This document shows, one piece after another, positions 8,135-57,558 of a stretch of 64,000 bases of DNA (the first letter of the stretch is position 1; each line of letters opens with the position of its first letter). Location of the stretch: IMG/VR virus record IMGVR_UViG_3300045988_135160. One strand, 5' to 3'. Below the pieces are notes generated by a model. The model did not search any database. It saw only the letters and a list, made by a program, of their open reading frames with translations, and was not told the DNA's origin. This DNA is from a virus. Made by a program: the position numbers and the translations under genes.

Positions 8135-9358
8135 TTATACGGAAATCCGTACTGGGTTCCACCAAAACCCTCTACCTTCTGGTAACATCGTTACATCAAA
8201 GGATTCTTTTGCTGATTTTCTAATGATGTTAAAAGCACCATTGATATCAGCATTAATAGTCCTACCAAACGAGGTTTTAAACAATCCTCGTTTGGTCCTT
8301 CTTCCTTTGTAAGATTCATGTTTACAAATCCGTTCATTATCCAAAAAGCTACATTTTGAAGTATAAGATTCTTCAACAATCTTAACATTAATACCTTCTA
8401 ATGTTGCTTTATACGATATCATACTGATAAACGAATTAAAAGGAATAGATACAAAGTTCTGATTATTTCGTTTTCCGATATTGATCTCTTGTTTCCAGCA
8501 TTTGTTATGACCGATTATGATCGTATTAATACCATTGGAAACTACGTGATTAATCAATATCCTACTCGCTTTGTGAAGATAATCTTTGATCTTGTTATTT
8601 CTTTTGTTGGTTAATGACCTGATTTGTTTTGAAGTATGTTTATTATCTTTTAATTTAGATTTTAAGAATGCTAATCTTTTATTATAATATTGGTTGATAG
8701 ACTTTAGTGGTCTACCATTGATAATAAAACAAGAACCTGTGTTTGAAACACAAGAAGCTAAATTATCTAATCCTATGTCGATGCCAAGATAGTTCCCATT
8801 ATCGGACATAAGATCTTTTTCCTTCTTATTGTAAACTATTTCAAGAACAATATATCCATTCTTAGGAACGAATCTAAGTTGTTGAATATTTTGTTTATTG
8901 GTTCTTGTTGTAAAAGAAAACTGTTTTGGTAACTTAACAATACCTTGTTTTATCCATTTTTGAGAAAAAGCGATTGTTGTAAAAACAGCAGTAAACAAAC
9001 CATTTTTGTTAAGATACCCAGGCATTCTAACAAATTCAGAATACTCACCTCTATTCTTTTTATTTAAAAGATTGAAGAATGATCTAAAGTTTCTATCTAC
9101 CATCATCAACACTTGCTGAGCAACCGGTGTTGGTAAAGCACGATAGTCGACATCATTTTCTATTCTTAGTTTCTTTTCGAGAGAATAATAATTGAGATAT
9201 TTGTACTTTACAGTATTATCATCCTTGTATTGGAAATAGTGTTGTCTAACAACATACAATCCTTTGTTGTATAAGTTTTTACACTTATGCAATAGGTCTT
9301 GAAGCTCATTGTAATATATTGAACTTTGTTTGATTATATGTTGTTCAACTAATCTCAT
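8135..9358 (-). CDS. tnpB: TnpB (OrfB, IS605 family RNA-guided RuvC nuclease), copy 1
   Basis: RuvC-I LGIDIGLDNLA, RuvC-II VEESYTSKC, zinc finger CSFLDNERICKHESY, RuvC-III INADINGAFNI. Probable start is MRLVEQ (9358) rather than the track start 9397, by analogy with copy 2 (MRLVYKF). Confidence 0.85.
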   Translation of the reverse strand: MRLVEQHIIKQSSIYYNELQDLLHKCKNLYNKGLYVVRQHYFQYKDDNTVKYKYLNYYSLEKKLRIENDVDYRALPTPVAQQVLMMVDRNFRSFFNLLNKKNRGEYSEFVRMPGYLNKNGLFTAVFTTIAFSQKWIKQGIVKLPKQFSFTTRTNKQNIQQLRFVPKNGYIVLEIVYNKKEKDLMSDNGNYLGIDIGLDNLASCVSNTGSCFIINGRPLKSINQYYNKRLAFLKSKLKDNKHTSKQIRSLTNKRNNKIKDYLHKASRILINHVVSNGINTIIIGHNKCWKQEINIGKRNNQNFVSIPFNSFISMISYKATLEGINVKIVEESYTSKCSFLDNERICKHESYKGRRTKRGLFKTSFGRTINADINGAFNIIRKSAKESFDVTMLPEGRGFWWNPVRISV

Positions 9359-11917: not shown

Positions 11918-12268
11918 ATGGGATTTATAATCAGAAAGTCAATCATTTATAATATGATGGACGGCAATCAATTAAATTATGAATTTGACAACAGGGATTT
12001 AGATCATATCACATTTAAAGGTGATGGTAAAGAACCTTTTTCATTTAACAGAGTCCTTGTTGAAAATTTAATTGAGACATTTGAGACTATGCAAGATATA
12101 TACTCTGATAATTACGGAATTAAGGTTTATACCGGTAATTGCATAATTCAACTGAATGTAAATCCAAAGAACTTAAGTGAATCCTTTTTTGACGTATATG
12201 ATAGAGATGGGATGAAATTGATATATAGCATACAAAATAGTATCTTGAAAGAAATGTTTGTCATATGA
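11918..12268 (+). CDS. hypothetical protein (116 aa)
   Basis: ORF track. A partial copy of the 24-mer (GGTGATTATATACC, 11890-11903) lies just upstream. Confidence 0.4.
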   Translation: MGFIIRKSIIYNMMDGNQLNYEFDNRDLDHITFKGDGKEPFSFNRVLVENLIETFETMQDIYSDNYGIKVYTGNCIIQLNVNPKNLSESFFDVYDRDGMKLIYSIQNSILKEMFVI

Positions 12269-12582
12269 TTACTAAACAAGATATACAAGCAGCAGCATCG
12301 TATATTTTCCGAAGCAGTTTTGTCTCGGAGGACCAGGCAAGGAAAGCAATGGTAAAAGCCGGCAATAACGCTACCAAGATCCTCGTCAAGACCTTTAGAG
12401 GCAAGTTGTTCAAGAAAGCTTTTGAAAGAGCCCGTAGAGGAAAGGATATCAGTTCTTTTGAAAGACAGGAAAAAGAAAGTGGTTTCAATTTTCTACATAA
12501 TCCTAATAATGGTCGTATGCAAAGCGGTCATATTATAATAGATGGAATTGGTCTGTTTAAACAAATAATTCATGAAAGGTAA
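12265..12582 (+). CDS. hypothetical basic protein (105 aa)
   Basis: ORF with a 4-nt overlap onto the previous gene. Followed by a strong terminator. Confidence 0.4.
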   Translation: MITKQDIQAAASYIFRSSFVSEDQARKAMVKAGNNATKILVKTFRGKLFKKAFERARRGKDISSFERQEKESGFNFLHNPNNGRMQSGHIIIDGIGLFKQIIHER

Positions 12583-24770: not shown

Positions 24771-26028
24771 TTATAAGTTTCCGGATATATTCATTTTGTA
24801 AAATACATTCGTAATCCTTACCGGGTTAAACAATAACCCTCTATCGATTATCCTACGAATTGATTCACAGGAATCACCGACTACTTTTCTCATAATGTTT
24901 AATGCTCCATTTATGTCTGCATTTATGAGTTTTCCTACCGAGGATTGAAACAATCCTCGGTTCTTCCTCTTTCCTAAATAGTTTTCATGTTTTCCTATCT
25001 TCTCAAATGCTAATGAATCACATTTTGAAGTATATGACTCTTCATGAATAACTATTTCAATACCAGCTAATTCACATTTATATTCTAAGTAACTCACCAA
25101 TCTCGCAAAAGGGATTTGTGTGAATTTCTGGTTATTCCTTTTTCCCATATTCACATTCTGTTTCCATCCCTTGTTATAGCCTACAACTAATTTTGTTATC
25201 TTAGAATCGACAAGCAAATCAACTATCTTTCTACTGATTTTATGAAAGACATCTTCTATGTACTGTTCCCTATCATAATATAATTTCTTTATTCGCTTTG
25301 TTATTCCTTTTATCTTTTGTAAATCCTTGATACTATTTAATTTAGCAAGTGTTTTATTAAATAATTGATTGTATGATTTAACAAATTTACCACTAAACAA
25401 AACAGTAAAATCCTCACTTACTAATGTTGCAAGATTATCAATCCCTAAATCGATTGAAGCAACTTTCTCTTCCCTACATTTAGATACTCCAGTATCTTTT
25501 ACCTCATAAATGATTTCTATTTTATATCCACACGCTAATGGTTTTATTCTAATCTGTTTGAAATCTTTTATCAAATCAGAATACTTTTCATATTGAGGAA
25601 TACTTATTGAAATATCTTTTGATAGGATTATTTTTCCATCTTTTATTTTGCAACTCTGATTCGTGTAATACAAATTAAATTCAGATCCTCTTTTTTCTAT
25701 AACTTGGAAGGCCTGGTTTTTCCCTATACTTATTATAATTTTTCTTGTAATCTTGGACCGATTTGTAGTAACCTTTAATGTTTTTATCAAGAATACGAAG
25801 AATTTGTTGTGAACATTGCGCCTTTAATAATTTGTAATTAATATCTCCATCCAAATTCTTGGTATTTTTCATGATAGCATCAAGTTCAAAATAGGACAAC
25901 CACTTATCTTCTTTAGAAAGTGTTTCTCTGAAAATATACAATGCCTGATTGTACAAGTTGTTGCTAATCTTGCATAAAGATGATATATTTTCATTTTGTC
26001 CTATGTTAAACTTATATACTAATCTCAT
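24771..26028 (-). pseudogene. tnpB: TnpB copy 2, disrupted by a frameshift (N-part 25681-26028, C-part 24771-25790)
   Basis: The two overlapping ORFs together align to TnpB-1. They share MRLVYKF, SIDLGIDNLA, EESYTSKC, CDSLAFEKIGKHENY and INADINGALNI. The frame switches within the run at 25691-25696. One extra base there would give a single roughly 430-aa ORF. Confidence 0.75.
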
Positions 26029-35156: not shown

Positions 35157-36293
35157 TTAATACAATGACTGTTCTTCCTTTGTCTCTTGTTCTTGATCTT
35201 GATTGTTCGTAACGTCTTCCACAGTATAGAGCTTGGGCGGCGTCGGCGGCTGGTTGGGGTTCACGAACTTCGTCCCGCCCTCCCCGTACATCCATCCATG
35301 TCCCGGCAGTATCTCTGGGTGGATTGTATTAGTAAGCTCTTCCATACTAACTTGCCTTACCTTCAGTATATGATGAAATACCAGTCCGGCTGTCCTGAAT
35401 GATGTTTTGTTTTCAGTTTTAAACCTATCAAGGGTCTGATACCAGTCTTTCCCAAATATCATATACTTATCCAGCCCGTACCTACGAGGATTGTGCAAAC
35501 CTATCATTAACGTACATAACTGACCCAGCGTATCGGATTGGTAAAAATCAGAAAGACGCGGAGGCTGCTCTTGTGGGCTTTTTATCCTTCCTTCTATTTC
35601 TCTGTTGAATTGGGATATGATGAGGAAAAATATGTTTTTATATACTAATTTAGCTTCGTTCATAACCGCCACCAAATCATCTATAGCCGACTTAGGATCT
35701 AATCCCATTCTTTTTATCAAAGCAATATGATCGACTTTAAATATTATAAGACGTTTGTCTTTATGTTTGGTAGCTATATGATACACAGCCGCCTCAAACT
35801 CTTTTACCGTACACGGAGCATCGATGTATATTATATTATTCCTGATTTCACCTTGAAGGATTTCAAACATCCTCATCTCTTCTACTGTATTAGAATCTTG
35901 CCTTCTTAATATTTCAGGAGCTCGCATTTTCATATCCTGGCTCATTCTACGAAGAAGAAGATCTTGAGGATTCATTTCGAACTCGCAATTAACAAGAAAA
36001 TAATCTTCTGCTTGCGGGTTGATCATCGGATTCATAACATTTTCCAATATCTTTTGAGCCACATACGATTTACCTACAGATGGCCGGGCTCCTATGGCAA
36101 TAGCGTGCTGAGGAAAAATACCTCCAAGCAAAGCCTCATCAATATAATCGTATCCGGTTTTAGCGGGGATAAGCTCTCCCCGCCTGTATTTCAAGATATT
36201 CTCATACGCCTCTTCCATAACCTGTTTGGAGGTTTTGAAAATATTCCGGATGTTAACTTTTGTCGTTTTGTTATCGAATGTTCCAAACTCCAT
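35157..36293 (-). CDS. DnaB-like replicative helicase (RecA-fold C-terminal domain)
   Basis: GYDYIDEALLGGIFPQHAIAIGARPSVGKS is the DnaB Walker A/H1 region. Walker B-like LIIFKVDHI. Confidence 0.65.
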   Translation of the reverse strand: MEFGTFDNKTTKVNIRNIFKTSKQVMEEAYENILKYRRGELIPAKTGYDYIDEALLGGIFPQHAIAIGARPSVGKSYVAQKILENVMNPMINPQAEDYFLVNCEFEMNPQDLLLRRMSQDMKMRAPEILRRQDSNTVEEMRMFEILQGEIRNNIIYIDAPCTVKEFEAAVYHIATKHKDKRLIIFKVDHIALIKRMGLDPKSAIDDLVAVMNEAKLVYKNIFFLIISQFNREIEGRIKSPQEQPPRLSDFYQSDTLGQLCTLMIGLHNPRRYGLDKYMIFGKDWYQTLDRFKTENKTSFRTAGLVFHHILKVRQVSMEELTNTIHPEILPGHGWMYGEGGTKFVNPNQPPTPPKLYTVEDVTNNQDQEQETKEEQSLY

Positions 36294-36298
36294 TGTGA

Positions 36299-37558
36299 TT
36301 ATTCGTTATTATGTGTATTTGCTTTATATCCATATGATTGATCTACTTCAATAGAAGTCAATCCATGTCCTATATATTTTAATTTTTTATATGATATATT
36401 TTTCTCATTTTCCCCATCTATATCTTTTATTTTAAAACTACCAGAAAGTCTTCTTGCGTAAATAAATCGTTTTTCACCATAAAACATTACTTTATCAAAT
36501 AGTCTAAACCCAAATACCCTAAATGGTGATTGATTCATTCTTTTGATCCCTCCCTTTTGCATCTTCATTTTATGAATTTGCCTATTATGTCTCCGTGTGA
36601 GTTTCATCTTGAAATGATATCCAAGCCTTTTTGCTTTAAAATTCTCTGAGATAACAAATGCATCAGAAACATGGGACTTTTCGATTCTATGTTTTATCCG
36701 ATTATGTTTCGTTATATATCCAAATGTCATACTAACGTTTGGATATAATGACTTCAATTTATCGAATAACTTCCATTTCATGATTCCCATCGCGGCCGCA
36801 TCACGAAGTGAAGTTCCTCTTTTTACCTTCAATTTAATATTCCCCTTATGGTACTCCTTATGGCAAGTTTCACATAAAGTAATCAAATTAGAAGGTGAAT
36901 CTCCACCAGTCTTTCGCGATTCGATATGGTGGATATTAAGAATAGGATTTTTCGATTTTCCCTTACAATGCTGGCATTTGTGACCATCACGAAAAAGTAT
37001 GTATTCTCGAACATTCCAAAATCCAAGTTGCTCGCCTTGCTGGTATTCTTTTCCCAATATATCAGGATTCTTAATCTTTTGAGTATCAAACTGAGAAGTT
37101 TCTATAATTAATCTTGAAACAGGAAGGATAGAATGTATAAAACTGACAACCTTAATATGGGAATCAATTTTTTGACAAACAGATGGAGCTATCCATCCTT
37201 GGCGCTTCGACTTTATTCTGTTATTAAATCTCGGCTTTCTATACCTTATCCTATTCCTTCTCGCTTTCCTCAATTCTCTTCTTGTCGAAAGCAAATTAAT
37301 GATATCATTTCTCAGAATAACTTCACTTGCGTAAAGCTCCTTGCTTTTCGTCGTAGCTGATAGACCAACATGTTTAGTTCCAGCATCAACGCCTAACACA
37401 ATTTCCTGTTTGTAATCAGATGTGACGTACATTAATTTGATGGTAAACGGACATAAGTTGACAACAACTGCCTTTTTGTCTTTAAGCAGTCTTCTAACCT
37501 TACCATGCCTTGTTGTTGGCATCAAAGGTTTACCATCTATGTCTTGTACGTACACCAT
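36299..37558 (-). CDS. iscB: IscB RNA-guided nuclease (PLMP, split RuvC and HNH), copy 1
   Basis: N-terminal DGKPLMPTTRHGKVRRLLK (PLMP domain). RuvC-I LGVDAGTKHVGLSA. HNH CQHCKGKSKNPILNIHHIESRKTGGDSPSNLITLCETCHKEYH. RuvC-III SHVSDAFVI. Size of 419 aa is typical of IscB. Confidence 0.85.
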   Translation of the reverse strand: MVYVQDIDGKPLMPTTRHGKVRRLLKDKKAVVVNLCPFTIKLMYVTSDYKQEIVLGVDAGTKHVGLSATTKSKELYASEVILRNDIINLLSTRRELRKARRNRIRYRKPRFNNRIKSKRQGWIAPSVCQKIDSHIKVVSFIHSILPVSRLIIETSQFDTQKIKNPDILGKEYQQGEQLGFWNVREYILFRDGHKCQHCKGKSKNPILNIHHIESRKTGGDSPSNLITLCETCHKEYHKGNIKLKVKRGTSLRDAAAMGIMKWKLFDKLKSLYPNVSMTFGYITKHNRIKHRIEKSHVSDAFVISENFKAKRLGYHFKMKLTRRHNRQIHKMKMQKGGIKRMNQSPFRVFGFRLFDKVMFYGEKRFIYARRLSGSFKIKDIDGENEKNISYKKLKYIGHGLTSIEVDQSYGYKANTHNNE

Positions 37559-37810
37559 TTGTTACAAACTAATTTTTAATTAATAACTACTATTCGTAGT
37601 AAGTCAGATATATTTCAATCTGTTAGTACCCATCGCCAATGTTATTCAGAGGTTTCTTACAAGCAACACTGTATCCAAATACAAATACTGTTTAATCACC
37701 TGCCTTAGAGCCTGGAGCTTGGATAAACACTCCAGGGTAACTATACATTCTCCGATAACGTAGTGCTCGAAGCACTTAGGCTAATAACCGGCCAGTAAAA
37801 CTGGATATAC
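36377..37810 (-). mobile_element. non-autonomous IS200/IS605-like IscB element 1 (iscB plus upstream omega-RNA block; boundaries approximate)
   Basis: Similarity to copy 2 extends from about codon 394 (YKKLK) through the roughly 230-nt upstream conserved block, then stops. Confidence 0.45.
37559..37810 (-). ncRNA. putative IscB omega-RNA (guide at the 5' end, about 37791-37810)
   Basis: Non-coding block immediately 5' of iscB-1, conserved with the block 5' of iscB-2. Two hairpins show compensatory changes: CCTGGAG/CTCCAGG versus CTACGAA/TCCGTAG, and GTGCT/AGCAC versus GTGTT/AACAC. Confidence 0.55.
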
Positions 37811-37843
37811 AAAAAAGTAAAATTCTATTTGTCTTTTTGTATA

Positions 37844-38119
37844 TTATTTCGGAGATCTTGCATTTTTGTCACCTTTCGTATCCGACTTGGATCCCCTATT
37901 AGCTTTTACTGATTTATACCTAAGACCGTTCTTGGTATGAGAACAATCCTTGCCTTTCCTCCAGCCCTTGCCCTTCTTCTTGTCCGTTTCGTAGTTTTTA
38001 CGACCAAGCTCCCGGCGTTTGGCTTTCTGTTCCGGTCTGGCATTTATCTCCTTGTCCTTTTTAGCCTTTTTCTTCCTGGCTTCTGGATGAGTCCTGTAGT
38101 ACTCTGTTGATCTGCCCAT
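37844..38119 (-). CDS. highly basic Lys/Arg-rich small protein (91 aa)
   Basis: ORF with more than 35 percent K+R. Confidence 0.4.
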   Translation of the reverse strand: MGRSTEYYRTHPEARKKKAKKDKEINARPEQKAKRRELGRKNYETDKKKGKGWRKGKDCSHTKNGLRYKSVKANRGSKSDTKGDKNARSPK

Positions 38120-38171: not shown

Positions 38172-38738
38172 CTATTTCAACCTGCCGTAGCTCATATCAG
38201 GATCACACCAGACATACCCATCTTTCTCATCATGGAGATACTCAGGACATCCTCTACATGCGCTACTTCCTGACACTATTTGATTGTTCTTATTAGGGCA
38301 CTTATCTCCAGGCTTATGCCATTCTATTCTCGAACCTGATCGTTCTTTGTTTACATGACAGAACTGAAAGATTTTTCCCATCGTCTTCTCGCCGAACATA
38401 CCTATATGTGTGTATTCTTCCGGTATAGAGAGAAATCCAGATAAATCTTTATACATCCTTTTCCGTTCCTCCGGCGTAGACCATAGTCTGTCAAGTTCGG
38501 CATGGACTCTTATCTTAAGAGATCTCAGTGATGGCCCCGCAAGCCGGCCTTTAGCTTTTCCCTTATTCGGCCCTGATTCATGAACACCGACATAAGCGTT
38601 GCATGGTTTGCACATCATAACCATACCTAAGCCTTTTCTGCTATATATTTTATCGGCATTGACCAGCTCGGTTTCCCTTCCGCAATAAGGACAAATTTCG
38701 CCTCTTAAAACCCGTTGTTGGCGCTCATTAAGTTCCAT
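38172..38738 (-). CDS. zinc-finger protein (188 aa)
   Basis: CPYCG, CKPC and CRGC Cys pairs. Confidence 0.5.
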   Translation of the reverse strand: MELNERQQRVLRGEICPYCGRETELVNADKIYSRKGLGMVMMCKPCNAYVGVHESGPNKGKAKGRLAGPSLRSLKIRVHAELDRLWSTPEERKRMYKDLSGFLSIPEEYTHIGMFGEKTMGKIFQFCHVNKERSGSRIEWHKPGDKCPNKNNQIVSGSSACRGCPEYLHDEKDGYVWCDPDMSYGRLK

Positions 38739-42340: not shown

Positions 42341-42827
42341 TCTTCTTCTCGCCTAATTTTTCAGCTCCCTTCTGAAGATCATATTTGAATACGTCAATGA
42401 TCTTCGTTTCAGCAATAGCTTCGCAATTCCAGTCGCCTAACGTGCCCTGCATGCCTTTAGTCAACACAGCTTCGGCATCCTTGGGATTGCCGGCCTGGAC
42501 ATACATATAGCATGGTGTTTTCTTTTCTTTACCTTTCTTTTCATCCAGTGTAATGTAATTCACCTTACACTTATACCAGTACTCAGCTTCTCCGTTGAAG
42601 AAGATTTCCGACACTTTAATAGGATTTATTTTAACAATGTCGAACACTTGAAATAAATCCTTGAAAATCTCTAAAGATCTTGATTCTGCCTCTGTATAAG
42701 ATAAGGCATCTACCAAATACTTTTCAGTTACCTTCTTTTTTTTGCCGTTCTCGATATTATCAATCTCGGCTTTTACTGTGATTTCAAACCAACGATTCAT
42801 GTCTATATTTTTATTCAAATTAATCAA
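42330..42827 (-). CDS. hypothetical protein (165 aa)
   Basis: ORF. Its start overlaps the iscB-2 stop. Confidence 0.45.
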   Translation of the reverse strand: MINLNKNIDMNRWFEITVKAEIDNIENGKKKKVTEKYLVDALSYTEAESRSLEIFKDLFQVFDIVKINPIKVSEIFFNGEAEYWYKCKVNYITLDEKKGKEKKTPCYMYVQAGNPKDAEAVLTKGMQGTLGDWNCEAIAETKIIDVFKYDLQKGAEKLGEKKSEE

Positions 42828-44050
42828 TCCATTTCCTTTTGTACCATAAAGCGTTTACACCTTGATAATTTCAATTTCTTGTATGTAATATCTCTTTGGT
42901 TTTTACCATCAATATCTCGAATATTAAAACTACCGGTTTTACGCCTTGCGAATATAAAATAATAACTGTTTTCAAACATAACCCTATCAAACAATCGGAA
43001 ACCAAAAACTTCAAAAGGAGATTGATTTGGTCTTTTTATCCCTCCTTTTGGAATCTTTTGTTTATGGATCTGACGATTATGTCTTCTTACTAATCTTACT
43101 TTATAATAATATCCTAACCTTATAGCATCAAAGTTTTTAGAAATAACAAATGCATCGAAAACATGAGATTTTTCAATACCATGTTTAATCCTATTGTATT
43201 TTGTAACATAACCGAAAGTCATAGAAACTCTGTTGTATTTAGACCTTAGTTCTTCATACAATCTCCATTTCATTATTCCCATTACGGCTGCGTCGCGAAG
43301 CGACGATCCCCGTTTGATCTTTAAATCTATATTACCTTTATGGTATTCTTTATGACAAGTTTCACATAAGGTAATAAGATTAGATGGGGAATCTCCACCT
43401 GTCTTTCGTGATTCAATATGATGAACATTCAATACTGGGTCTTTTGACTTTCCCTTACAATGCTGGCATTTATGTCCATCTCTTGCTAAAACATATTCCC
43501 TAACGTTCCAAAATCCAAGTTGATCACCCTCCTGATATTCTTTACCTGATATATTAGGATTGTTAATCTTTTGAGTATCAAATTGAGCTACTTCGATAAC
43601 AATACGAGATATTGGTAATATAGAACATACATTGTCAATAACACGAATATGGGCGTCTACTTTGTATTTCACCGAAGGTGCTACCCATCCCGGACGCTTA
43701 CTTTTTATTCTATTATCAAAACGAGGTTTTCTATATCTCAATCTATTTCGTCTTGATCTTCGTAGCTCCCTTCTGGTAGACAAAAGATCTACGATATCAT
43801 TTCTAAGGATAACTTCACTGCTGTAAAGTTCTTTGCTTTTCGTTGTAGCCGATAGACCAACATGTTTAGTACCAGCATCAACGCCTAACACAATTTCTTG
43901 TTTGTAATCAGATGTTACGTACATTAATTTGATGGTAAACGGACATAGGTTTACAACGATTGCCTTTTTGTCTTTAAGCAGTCTCCTAACCTTACCATGC
44001 CTTGTTGTAGGCATCATAGGTTTACCATTTATGTCTTGTACGTACACCAT
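42824..44050 (-). CDS. iscB: IscB RNA-guided nuclease, copy 2 (about 80 percent identical to copy 1)
   Basis: Same PLMP, RuvC and HNH motifs (MVYVQDINGKPMMPTTRHGKVRRLLK; CQHCKGKSKDPVLNVHHIESRKTGGDSPSNLITLCETCHKEYH). C-terminus diverges from copy 1 after YKKLK. Confidence 0.85.
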   Translation of the reverse strand: MVYVQDINGKPMMPTTRHGKVRRLLKDKKAIVVNLCPFTIKLMYVTSDYKQEIVLGVDAGTKHVGLSATTKSKELYSSEVILRNDIVDLLSTRRELRRSRRNRLRYRKPRFDNRIKSKRPGWVAPSVKYKVDAHIRVIDNVCSILPISRIVIEVAQFDTQKINNPNISGKEYQEGDQLGFWNVREYVLARDGHKCQHCKGKSKDPVLNVHHIESRKTGGDSPSNLITLCETCHKEYHKGNIDLKIKRGSSLRDAAVMGIMKWRLYEELRSKYNRVSMTFGYVTKYNRIKHGIEKSHVFDAFVISKNFDAIRLGYYYKVRLVRRHNRQIHKQKIPKGGIKRPNQSPFEVFGFRLFDRVMFENSYYFIFARRKTGSFNIRDIDGKNQRDITYKKLKLSRCKRFMVQKEMD

Positions 44051-44300
44051 ATCTACAAACGTTTTTAATGTTTATTCAACATAAGTCAGAGTGAAACTCT
44101 GTTAGTACCCATCGCCAATGTTATTTAAGGTTTTTTTTGTAAGCAACACTGTTCCTGAATACCAGAACTGTTTAATCACTTACCTTAGAGCTACGAACTT
44201 GGGCAAACATCCGTAGGTAACTATCTATTCTTAAATAACGTAGTGTTTGTTTCAACACTTAGGCTAATAATCGGAATAGCTTTTGGCTATTATGCATAAT
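42869..44300 (-). mobile_element. non-autonomous IS200/IS605-like IscB element 2 (boundaries approximate)
   Basis: Extent of nucleotide and protein similarity to element 1. Confidence 0.45.
44051..44300 (-). ncRNA. putative IscB omega-RNA, copy 2 (guide about 44281-44300)
   Basis: Conserved with 37559-37810. Compensatory stem changes support a structured RNA. Confidence 0.55.
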
Positions 44301-44509
44301 ACAATACAAATTGTTTATGATTTGTATGGGTTATGCATTATTCTCGATTATTTACTATCGTGGCCACGAAATACTTACACCCCTCTAAGTGCGTCAGGGC
44401 TTCAATCATAGCTTCTTTTATCTCTTTTTCTTCCATTCTGTTTGTTTTTTTGGACAAAGATATGCCTTTTGATAATAAAAAAGATTCAAAATGATTTAAT
44501 TTAGCTTAA

Positions 44510-56325: not shown

Positions 56326-57558
56326 TTGTATCATAAAACTGATAAGGAAATGATTAAAGGTTACAAATATAGATTAGATCCTACACCGGAACAGATTGTC
56401 CAAATGGAGAAAACATTTGGATGTTGTAGGTATGTCTATAATTGGGCTCTTGATCTGAAAATTAAAACTTATCAGGGTGAAAAAAGATCTTTGTCAGCAG
56501 TTGATTTATGCAAGCAGCTAACATTACTCAAAAAAGATGAGAACCATCTTTGGCTAAATGAAGTATCTAATGAATGCTTGCAACAATCTATACGCTGTAT
56601 GGATAGTGCCTTCACCAAATTCTTTAGAGAACATACCGGATTTCCCAAATTCAAATCCAAACATAGGGATAAGAACGTTTTTAAGAATGTCAATTCTGTT
56701 AAGTTTGATTTTGAAAATAACAGAGTTAAGATTCCTATCATTGGTTGGGTAAAGTTTTTTGCCAATCGGTCCTTTGAAGGTGAGATTGGTACGATAACAA
56801 TATCTAAATCATCAACCGGTAAGTTTTATGCAAGTGTCTTAATAGATGACGGTATTCCTAATCCTGACAAATTTGCTATCAATTCCGATACAACAGTAGG
56901 AATTGATGTGGGAATTAAGGATTTCGCCGTCTTATCCAATGGGCAGGTTTTTAGTAATCCGAAGTATTTGGAATCTGTGCAGAAAAGATTAGGATGCTTG
57001 CAAAGAAGGTTTAGTCGCAAACATAAAGGAAGCAACCGATACAAGAAGGCAAAACATGATATTGCCGTTTGTCATGAACGGATTCGAAACCGTAGACAAG
57101 ATTTCTTACACAAGGTCAGTAAGAAGATAGTAAGTGAAAACCAAACTATTATCATCGAAGATCTTAATGTAGAAGGTATGTTGAAAAATCATTGCCTTGC
57201 TAAGGGTATTGCTTCTGCATCTTGGAGCGAGTTCTTCAGGATGCTGCAATATAAATCAGATTGGCGCGGTGTTAATTTAATTCGGATAGGTAGATTCGAG
57301 CCGAGTTCTAAGATGTGCGGATGTGGATACATACATCGTGATCTTAAGTTATCGGATCGAGTATGGACTTGTCCTGAATGTGGCGCCGTCAATGATCGTG
57401 ATTTACTTGCAGCGAATAACATTAAAAGATTTGGGTTAGAAAAGAAGAATCTTCTAACCCAAGAAAATATTAACAAGACACCGGTGGTGAACCGGGAGGG
57501 GGACGTGGAGTTGTCGGCGGTAGCCGGAGCTGTGAAGCGTCAAAATGTACTGGTGTAA
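56326..57558 (+). CDS. tnpB: TnpB (IS605 OrfB family), copy 3, from a different subfamily than copies 1 and 2
   Basis: N-terminal YRLDPTPEQ HTH. RuvC-I VGIDVGIKDFAVLSNG. RuvC-II IIIEDLNV. Zn finger CGCGYIHRDLKLSDRVWTCPECG. RuvC-III NDRDLLAANNI. Opposite strand to the surrounding genes. Confidence 0.85.
   Translation: MYHKTDKEMIKGYKYRLDPTPEQIVQMEKTFGCCRYVYNWALDLKIKTYQGEKRSLSAVDLCKQLTLLKKDENHLWLNEVSNECLQQSIRCMDSAFTKFFREHTGFPKFKSKHRDKNVFKNVNSVKFDFENNRVKIPIIGWVKFFANRSFEGEIGTITISKSSTGKFYASVLIDDGIPNPDKFAINSDTTVGIDVGIKDFAVLSNGQVFSNPKYLESVQKRLGCLQRRFSRKHKGSNRYKKAKHDIAVCHERIRNRRQDFLHKVSKKIVSENQTIIIEDLNVEGMLKNHCLAKGIASASWSEFFRMLQYKSDWRGVNLIRIGRFEPSSKMCGCGYIHRDLKLSDRVWTCPECGAVNDRDLLAANNIKRFGLEKKNLLTQENINKTPVVNREGDVELSAVAGAVKRQNVLV

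Follow-up and report, generated by a model that had tools for sequence, protein, structure and literature searches.

An IscB/omega-RNA insertion of probable IS200/IS605 type beside the DUF4494 gene of an epsilon crAss-like gut phage

The closest described systems are the IscB nucleases of ISC elements, which belong to the IS200/IS605 type, e.g., OgeuIscB and the IscB of G. stearothermophilus ISGst5. These proteins have a PLMP/RRXRR N-terminus, a split RuvC domain and an HNH domain. The omega-RNA is encoded directly upstream of iscB on the same strand, its scaffold starts at the end of the element, and the guide is derived from the flanking DNA. About 98% of iscB loci have no tnpA inside the element, so that lack of a transposase in cis is the usual state (PMC10055086). 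The same features are found in a 64-kb stretch of DNA from a gut epsilon crAss-like phage (IMG/VR record IMGVR_UViG_3300045988_135160, hereafter the window). Positions 42801–44351, termed element B, probably represent a non-autonomous insertion of the ISC/IS200-IS605 type, situated in the replication-gene module of the phage and consisting of iscB as sole gene with an upstream omega-RNA. Element B is a genuine, intact member of this family and not a new kind of system. The crAss-like phages are a host group in which IscB had not been described in the open-access literature searched. A paralogous copy, element A, is present in the same window.

The elements are followed by an ATG(R) motif, which resembles the target-adjacent motif (TAM) of GstIscB, TTCAT, i.e., ATGAA on the iscB strand (PMC10055086). 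There are also differences. The IscB proteins of the window are only about 30–50% identical to those with solved structures, the omega-RNAs have an unusually long hairpin inserted in stem P1, and a left-end hairpin is not detectable. Moreover, these elements reside and spread in crAss-like phage genomes and not in bacterial chromosomes.

IscB-B is 408 aa and IscB-A is 419 aa; 312 of 394 aligned residues are identical, without gaps (79%). This agrees with the original prediction, made from the window sequence, of a second and diverged IscB plus omega-RNA element with about 80% protein identity, and also supports its view that the pair is neither a recent duplication nor an assembly artefact. 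Both proteins match Pfam RRXRR over its full length (E = 3e-60 for IscB-B and 2e-58 for IscB-A) and the Pfam HNH domain (E = 4e-9). The equivalog model NF040563 of NCBIfam (guided_IscB, "RNA-guided endonuclease IscB") gives 361 and 357 bits where the cutoff is 175. Both align to the solved OgeuIscB chains with E values of 1e-42 to 1e-44, and the RuvC Asp/Glu/His-Asp and HNH His-His motifs are matched; GVDAG, IEVAQFD, NVHHIESR and KSHVFDAF pair with their OgeuIscB counterparts. IscB-B is an IscB that carries every catalytic motif. By family models, split RuvC/HNH motifs and the accompanying omega-RNA, both proteins are predicted RNA-guided endonucleases.

A scan of the whole window with Rfam yields just two matches above threshold. 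Both are to HEARO (RF02033, gathering score 83), on the same strand and directly upstream of the iscB genes: positions 44101–44293 with 113 bits in copy B, and 37622–37847 with 101 bits in copy A. An alignment of A and B shows that the similarity extends beyond the coding region into a shared non-coding scaffold, whose stem differences are compensatory. In 12 subfamily representatives, 17 of the 54 predicted base pairs of the core have compensatory changes.

Folding of 18 representatives reveals a common 5' architecture that is larger than the Rfam match. The first 7 nt of the element, termed the tip, form a stem with the 7 nt that immediately precede the pseudoknot strand TAGCC; a long and a short hairpin are enclosed by it. 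In other subfamilies the tip and its partner read ATATCCG/CGGATAT or ATAACCT/AGGTTAT, i.e., base compensatory changes maintain the pairing, and the tip/CGATTAT stem of copy B corresponds to P1 of the Rfam model. Own strands score only slightly better than cross-paired strands (5.75 vs 5.33) because the stem ends are invariant. For copy B, Rfam places P1 at 44289–44293. This was rejected as artefactual, since the model allows for a shorter hairpin than the long one inserted here. An AATAAT/ATTATT pairing was also dropped as P1, as it is the tip/CGRTTAT pairing that covaries. Compared with shuffled sequences, the 90-nt 5' module has z-scores of -6.3 on the RNA-sense strand and -6.5 on the opposite strand.

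Alignments of the upstream regions show that the hairpin bases are constant, or mostly maintain their pairs, in copies that have unrelated flanks, and that site-specific sequence begins only 5' of the tip, AT(A/T)(A/C)TCG(A/C)G. The scaffold therefore starts at 44351 in copy B and at 37856 in copy A, each the very first base of the insertion, and any guide lies outside these points. The original prediction had placed the guides at 44281–44300 and 37791–37810 and regarded the 210 nt beyond, in copy B, as an unrelated spacer with its own repeat and open reading frame (ORF). The sequences of A and B are indeed unlike at these positions. However, the bases are constant within each subfamily across unrelated sites, the hairpins retain most of their pairs through sequence changes, and P1 (44345–44351 with 44267–44273) encloses the proposed guide positions, which makes this layout hardly tenable. 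The positions are those of hairpin 2 and the 3' strand of P1, and variable, flank-derived sequence starts about 70 nt further out. The long inverted repeat that had been noted is real but is hairpin 1 of the omega-RNA, and the 32-codon minus-strand ORF is likewise real but is the remnant of a truncated 86-codon phage gene. The 210 nt do not form a feature of their own: the first 58 nt or so are the 5' part of the omega-RNA (5' strand of P1 and long hairpin), and the rest consists of the guide and the gene remnant with its promoter region. That the two copies have different guides is borne out by the guides inferred here, which come from different flanks.

IMG/VR has 298 stretches that encode close relatives of IscB-B and 179 that encode close relatives of IscB-A. 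A total of 160 loci was retrieved, and empty sites were located by BLAST of the flanks of every element against the window, the whole genome of the epsilon crAss-like phage crAssE-Sib (OR575929, the nearest GenBank genome, hereafter Sib) and all loci. Sib contains the flanks of both elements at 87–97% identity and lacks both insertions. The 3' end of B-type elements consists of the IscB stop codon, a conserved A/T-rich tail of 23 nt, and an ATG that is followed by 14 distinct downstream sequences. About 20 comparisons of occupied and empty sequences give precise empty sites of the form ...AT/G...; in the occupied sites one end reads ...AT-TCTCGCG... and the other ...ATAGAC-ATG..., with no duplication beyond an ambiguous 2-nt AT. 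Six of the sites are start codons annotated in Sib, including those of the portal gene, a phosphodiesterase gene and a Ro60-like gene. As there are also sites at ATGs that are not start codons, one ahead of a tRNA and one out of frame within a gene, the common factor is the ATG and not the gene start as such. A purine occupies the fourth position in 15 of 16 sites (the 14 3' flanks and two internal 5'-junction sites in the 86-codon gene), to which codon usage after start codons may contribute. The sites of this IscB clade number at least 14 and have exact empty counterparts; the insertion is always directly before an ATG (mostly ATGR), usually a start codon. As read from the sequences, the manner of insertion is the IS200/IS605 pattern.

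In one subfamily (L027, L028, L030, L034 and L064, compared with position 48483 of L160) the insertion is just past the upstream stop codon, in the overlapping start of the next gene; the terminal ATG gives a new start, and the downstream gene is without its first four codons. In L003, L004, L018, L025, L065 and L071 the IscB reading frames are broken or shortened in copies that are otherwise 91–100% identical, which represents either decay or assembly errors.

Element B is at a site where phage DNA is missing. In Sib an intact 86-codon gene (L001, positions 2684–2944) is located between the DUF4494 gene and a 222-codon gene; the window retains only the promoter region and the first 27 codons of this gene. 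The 3' junction of the element is the start of the DUF4494 gene, and the 5' junction is an ATG within the 86-codon gene that is out of frame. In most empty alleles the sequence exactly at the 5' junction of the window is GATAGTAA-ATG-AAG (over a longer stretch, CGATAGTAA-ATG-AAGAGG); this junction is therefore a regular ATG site. A set of 80 alleles, out of the 192 DUF4494-locus alleles in IMG/VR, was compared; 63 are empty and 17 are occupied. The 86-codon gene is intact in 61 of the 80, and two more empty alleles (L164 and L165) have a TnpB insertion in it.

Several other junctions were observed. In L004, L009, L013, L014 and L016, also at the B locus, the 5' junction is the start codon of the 86-codon gene itself, so that the entire gene is replaced, and the 3' junction is the same. 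L019, compared with L160 (positions 12266–12433), is a B-type copy whose 3' junction is canonical and coincides with a start codon; on the guide side 167 bp of the upstream gene are gone, and the pattern is that of element B. Deletions of 6, 10 and 25 bp at the 5' junction of B are found in L005, L007, L008 and four alleles within L163–L242, where the guide is partly or wholly gone and the tip is intact, and in L011 and L013 tip sequence is repeated in short tandem duplications. These deletions and duplications could be due to repair after leaky self-cutting or to microhomology slippage. In L164 and L165 (about positions 2100–2390) the TnpB gene's 3' portion is within the 86-codon gene, and this small gene has been hit by two different OMEGA-type elements (the acronym denotes obligate mobile element-guided activity).

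Table 1. Features of elements A and B and related genes in the window
Feature	Positions	Strand	Remarks
Element B, non-autonomous IscB/omega-RNA (HEARO) insertion, 1551 bp	42801–44351	-	Sib homology ends at 42800 and restarts at 44351; identical ends at at least 14 other sites
Start ATG of DUF4494 gene	42798–42800	-	Directly 3' of the element B tail
3' tail of element B, TTAATTTGAATAAAAATATAGAC	42801–42823	-	Between IscB stop codon and ATG of DUF4494 gene; conserved, followed by the ATG of 14 different sequences
IscB-B coding sequence, 408 aa	42824–44050	-	RuvC D/E/H-D and HNH HH motifs present
Omega-RNA (HEARO) scaffold, copy B	44051–44351	-	Rfam core 44101–44266
Hairpin 2 inside P1 (AATAGC-CAAAA-GCTATT)	44275–44291	-	Guide of the original prediction; variants ATAGCT..AGCTAT and ATAGTTT..AAACTAT keep most pairs; unrelated flanks
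Hairpin 1 inside P1	44294–44336	-	Long inverted repeat of the original prediction; conserved with differing sequences across subfamilies
5' strand of P1, ATAATCG (first 7 nt of element)	44345–44351	-	Pairs with 44267–44273 (CGATTAT), 7 of 7 pairs
Inferred guide of copy B, GTGGCCACGATAGTAA	44352–44367	-	First non-conserved bases 5' of scaffold; flanking DNA inside the truncated 86-codon gene
32-codon ORF	44338–44436	-	First 27 codons of the 86-codon gene, then into the element; stop is a TAA inside the element
TATCTTTG, match to -7 box TAnnTTTG	44455–44462	-	About 20 nt upstream of the remnant ORF; read from sequence
Element A (paralog)	36294–37856	-	IscB-A 36299–37558; omega-RNA 37559–37856; 5-nt tail TCACA before the DnaB ATG
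Inferred guide of copy A, GTGACAAAAATGCAAG	37857–37872	-	Flank directly 5' of tip ATCTCCG
Alternative DnaB N-terminus, MEFGTFDNKTTKVNIRN..., 54 nt	36240–36293	-	Always travels with element A
TnpB-like gene 1	8138–9358	-	96% identical to Sib TnpB
TnpB-like gene 2	about 24810–26028	-	Segment absent from Sib
TnpB-like gene 3	56359–57444	+	Segment absent from Sib

By the logic of IS200/IS605 elements, the guide of each copy would be the DNA that flanks the scaffold, and we take its length to be 16 nt, as assumed from OgeuIscB. At simple insertions a flank-derived guide plus TAM rebuilds the empty site by construction. At the B locus, guide B followed by ATGAAG is present in 48 of the 63 empty alleles (76%), always with one or two mismatches, which are at guide positions 3 and 6 and are TAM-distal; the two common protospacers of the empty alleles begin GTAGCC… and GTGGCT…. 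An ATG is absent from 13 of the 63, of which 12 have ACG (a synonymous AAT to AAC change; Sib is included) and one has ATA, and in two more the gene is interrupted by TnpB. The Sib-type alleles were considered as a target of guide B, but they have ACG and not ATG. At the window's own locus, ATA comes after the protospacer. Judged from these sequences, copy B plausibly has a live target in most relatives, with its own locus protected. Transcription of the guide and omega-RNA could come by read-through from TATCTTTG, a possible promoter element that fits TAnnTTTG, which we take to be the consensus of the Bacteroidetes -7 box.

The flank of copy A was compared with 76 empty alleles out of 519 DnaB-locus alleles in IMG/VR. 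Element A is carried by just four IMG/VR contigs and one contig of the Joint Genome Institute (JGI) metagenomes. Beside IscB-A, DnaB has an alternative N-terminus, which is found only in these five contigs; the 76 empty alleles encode MQEE... or MHEE... in its place, and a search of IMG/VR and the JGI metagenomes found no alternative N-terminus without IscB-A. The 54-nt tract looks like it was co-converted from a more distant donor.

The population data bring to mind the free-standing homing endonuclease genes of T-even phages (SegB–G, MobE). In both cases a nuclease gene is present or absent between conserved phage genes, a predicted target is found in the allele without the gene, there are several flank haplotypes, and flanking sequence travels with the gene, here the alternative DnaB N-terminus with copy A. 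The same likenesses apply to the "transposon non-restorative homing" that has been proposed (PMC13565253). In contrast to the T-even genes, the target here would be read by an RNA guide plus a motif of 3–4 nt and not by protein, and the IscB element can colonise new sites, which classical homing genes do not.

In the mechanism proposed here, read-through transcription would include the 16 nt of phage DNA 5' of the scaffold, which would act as the guide. Thus directed, IscB-B would cut the same sequence where an ATG follows, i.e., in the uninterrupted 86-codon gene of co-infecting relatives; the phage's own copy, which has ATA after the protospacer, would be spared for that reason. Repair by recombination with the IscB-bearing genome would then copy the element and delete the rest of the small gene (homing). 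The A/T-rich tail would replace the native leader of the DUF4494 gene, so that the downstream gene keeps its start. The first arrival at a new ATG would need a TnpA-type transposase in trans. Copy A would in principle work in the same way, with another guide, at the start of DnaB, and may currently lack a target.

The occurrence of guide B plus ATG in 48 of the 63 empty alleles fits RNA-guided homing, and two indirect signs are the distribution of the occupied alleles and the sequence tract linked to copy A. Occupied alleles are on several flank haplotypes, and for several of them the nearest neighbors are empty alleles that differ by 0.1–0.4%, whereas the nearest occupied allele differs by 3.7–5%. 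As the deleted gene could not be restored by excision, recombinational transfer is required to explain the scatter, which is in keeping with homing but also with ordinary phage mosaicism. It is possible, and we put it forward only tentatively, that the IscB/omega-RNA elements behave as gene drives with RNA guides in co-infections of epsilon crAss-like phages. They would land by ATG(R) at gene starts, where an insertion costs little because the tail replaces the leader, their guides would cut the uninterrupted allele of rivals, and the sampled population would already show the aftermath: on this view each empty allele at the two loci has either lost its TAM (AAT to AAC, synonymous, or AGG) or has a guide mismatch.

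A number of observations weigh against an IS200/IS605-type insertion that spreads by its guide. Element B is not a simple insertion: its junctions are two different ATGs that are 190 bp apart, and the intervening DNA is gone. Possible routes to this are deletion of adjacent DNA by a transposase, recombination of one copy with another, or microhomology at ATGAA. TnpA is absent from the element and from the window in a tblastn search with a phage TnpA. When 2.5 Mb of DNA from related phages was scanned for the motif, a single TnpA was found, which belongs to an IS605 that has TTAC as its target and a GC-rich hairpin. Strong structure is present on the right-end side (z = -6.5, top strand); no significant left-end hairpin is present in positions 42803–42900 (98 nt, tail and ORF end; z = +0.6 to +1.1), and the 3' tails vary from 5 to 56 nt and differ widely between subfamilies. 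The lack of a left-end hairpin and the variable tails leave canonical transposition by TnpA unproven. At the B locus, none of the 63 empty alleles has a perfect match to guide B plus TAM, which fits a spent drive or plain vertical inheritance. At the DnaB locus the copy A protospacer is present in all 76 empty alleles (54 exact, 22 with one mismatch), but the next bases are AGG and not ATG, and the predicted donor joint (…GCAAG/ATGGAG…) has no exact match in IMG/VR or the JGI metagenomes. For copy A, the susceptible allele may be exhausted, the TAM may be different, or the element may simply be stranded.

The last possibility can be extended to both elements, which would then be passengers from single ancestral insertions, inherited vertically or shuffled by recombination, that cut nothing useful at present and have an intact nuclease only because they are young. 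The AGG in every empty DnaB-locus allele and the missing donor joint agree with this, as do the lack of a perfect target among the empty B alleles, the broken IscB frames described above, and the failure to find a cognate TnpA or a left-end hairpin. On the other hand, recent mobility is indicated by the near-identical elements that occupy at least 14 sites and have exact empty counterparts, compensatory changes maintain the omega-RNA stems, guide B with ATG is present in 76% of the empty alleles with mismatches that are TAM-distal only, and the occupied alleles are dispersed over flank haplotypes. Overall we consider it rather unlikely that the elements are only stranded. A role as a weapon, in which IscB would be retained by the phage for attack on competitor phages or on the DNA of the host and not for spread of the element, is far less probable still. 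It would be in keeping with a B guide that matches a gene of related phages and with a clade that is nearly confined to phage contigs. However, the guides are the DNA adjoining each insertion, as in ordinary IS200/IS605 elements, and presence/absence polymorphism together with many sites is the pattern of a selfish element.

IscB homologs are known from other tailed phages, e.g., Clostridium phage c-st and phages of Ralstonia and Staphylococcus, where they are mostly annotated as "HNH endonuclease". Among 50,697 GenBank phage records, 31 have IscB homologs, all with less than 60% identity, and none of the 31 is a crAss-like phage. TnpB, and not IscB, was reported for this group in the paper on crAssE-Sib (PMC11054128). 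A report of IscB in crAss-like phages was not found in the open-access literature. In 185,579 species-representative genomes the best matches have identities of 79% (a Vibrio assembly, contig of 20 kb) and 69% (a 6.9-kb contig of a Phocaeicola metagenome-assembled genome), followed by matches of 55% or less; both short contigs are probably viral. The former, L323 (NZ_JBHMEP010000019.1, Vibrio olivae assembly, marine), has an IscB of 79% identity; its tip and P1 are arranged in the same way, and its 3' end is flanked by ATG. A marine Vibrio would be an unexpected host for a gut crAss-like element, and the contig may be contamination.

The original prediction regarded two IscB copies in one phage segment as unusual. 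However, two IscB loci are present in at least eight contigs of IMG/VR from this phage group, i.e., two copies are common in the group. The window has five OMEGA-type nuclease genes, two IscB and three TnpB. The position of TnpB gene 1 differs from that in Sib, where TnpB is at 64111–65460; the window copy is between the equivalents of Sib positions 92041 and 92641. A complete autonomous IS605 is found in the sibling phage L277 (IMGVR_UViG_3300045988_131853, positions 633–2230), with a Y1 TnpA of 132 aa and a divergent TnpB of 379 aa. It interrupts a zinc-finger gene that is intact in the window at 38172–38738, and its target is apparently TTAC. This TnpA was considered as the mobiliser of the IscB elements but is unlikely, in view of the TTAC target and an unrelated GC-rich hairpin.

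For annotation, it is of significance that the Rfam HEARO match stops 58 nt short of the 5' end of this omega-RNA, so that guides read from the Rfam boundary are wrong. The window provides two compact IscB/omega-RNA pairs (408 and 419 aa) whose scaffold ends are well defined and whose predicted motif, ATG(R), is short. If the homing reading is true, the abundant crAss-like phages of the human gut would be a natural arena for the RNA-guided selfish spread of OMEGA nucleases, which so far has been shown with engineered constructs in bacteria. The spread would then be readable from population data, where occupied, susceptible and apparently resistant alleles are all sampled.

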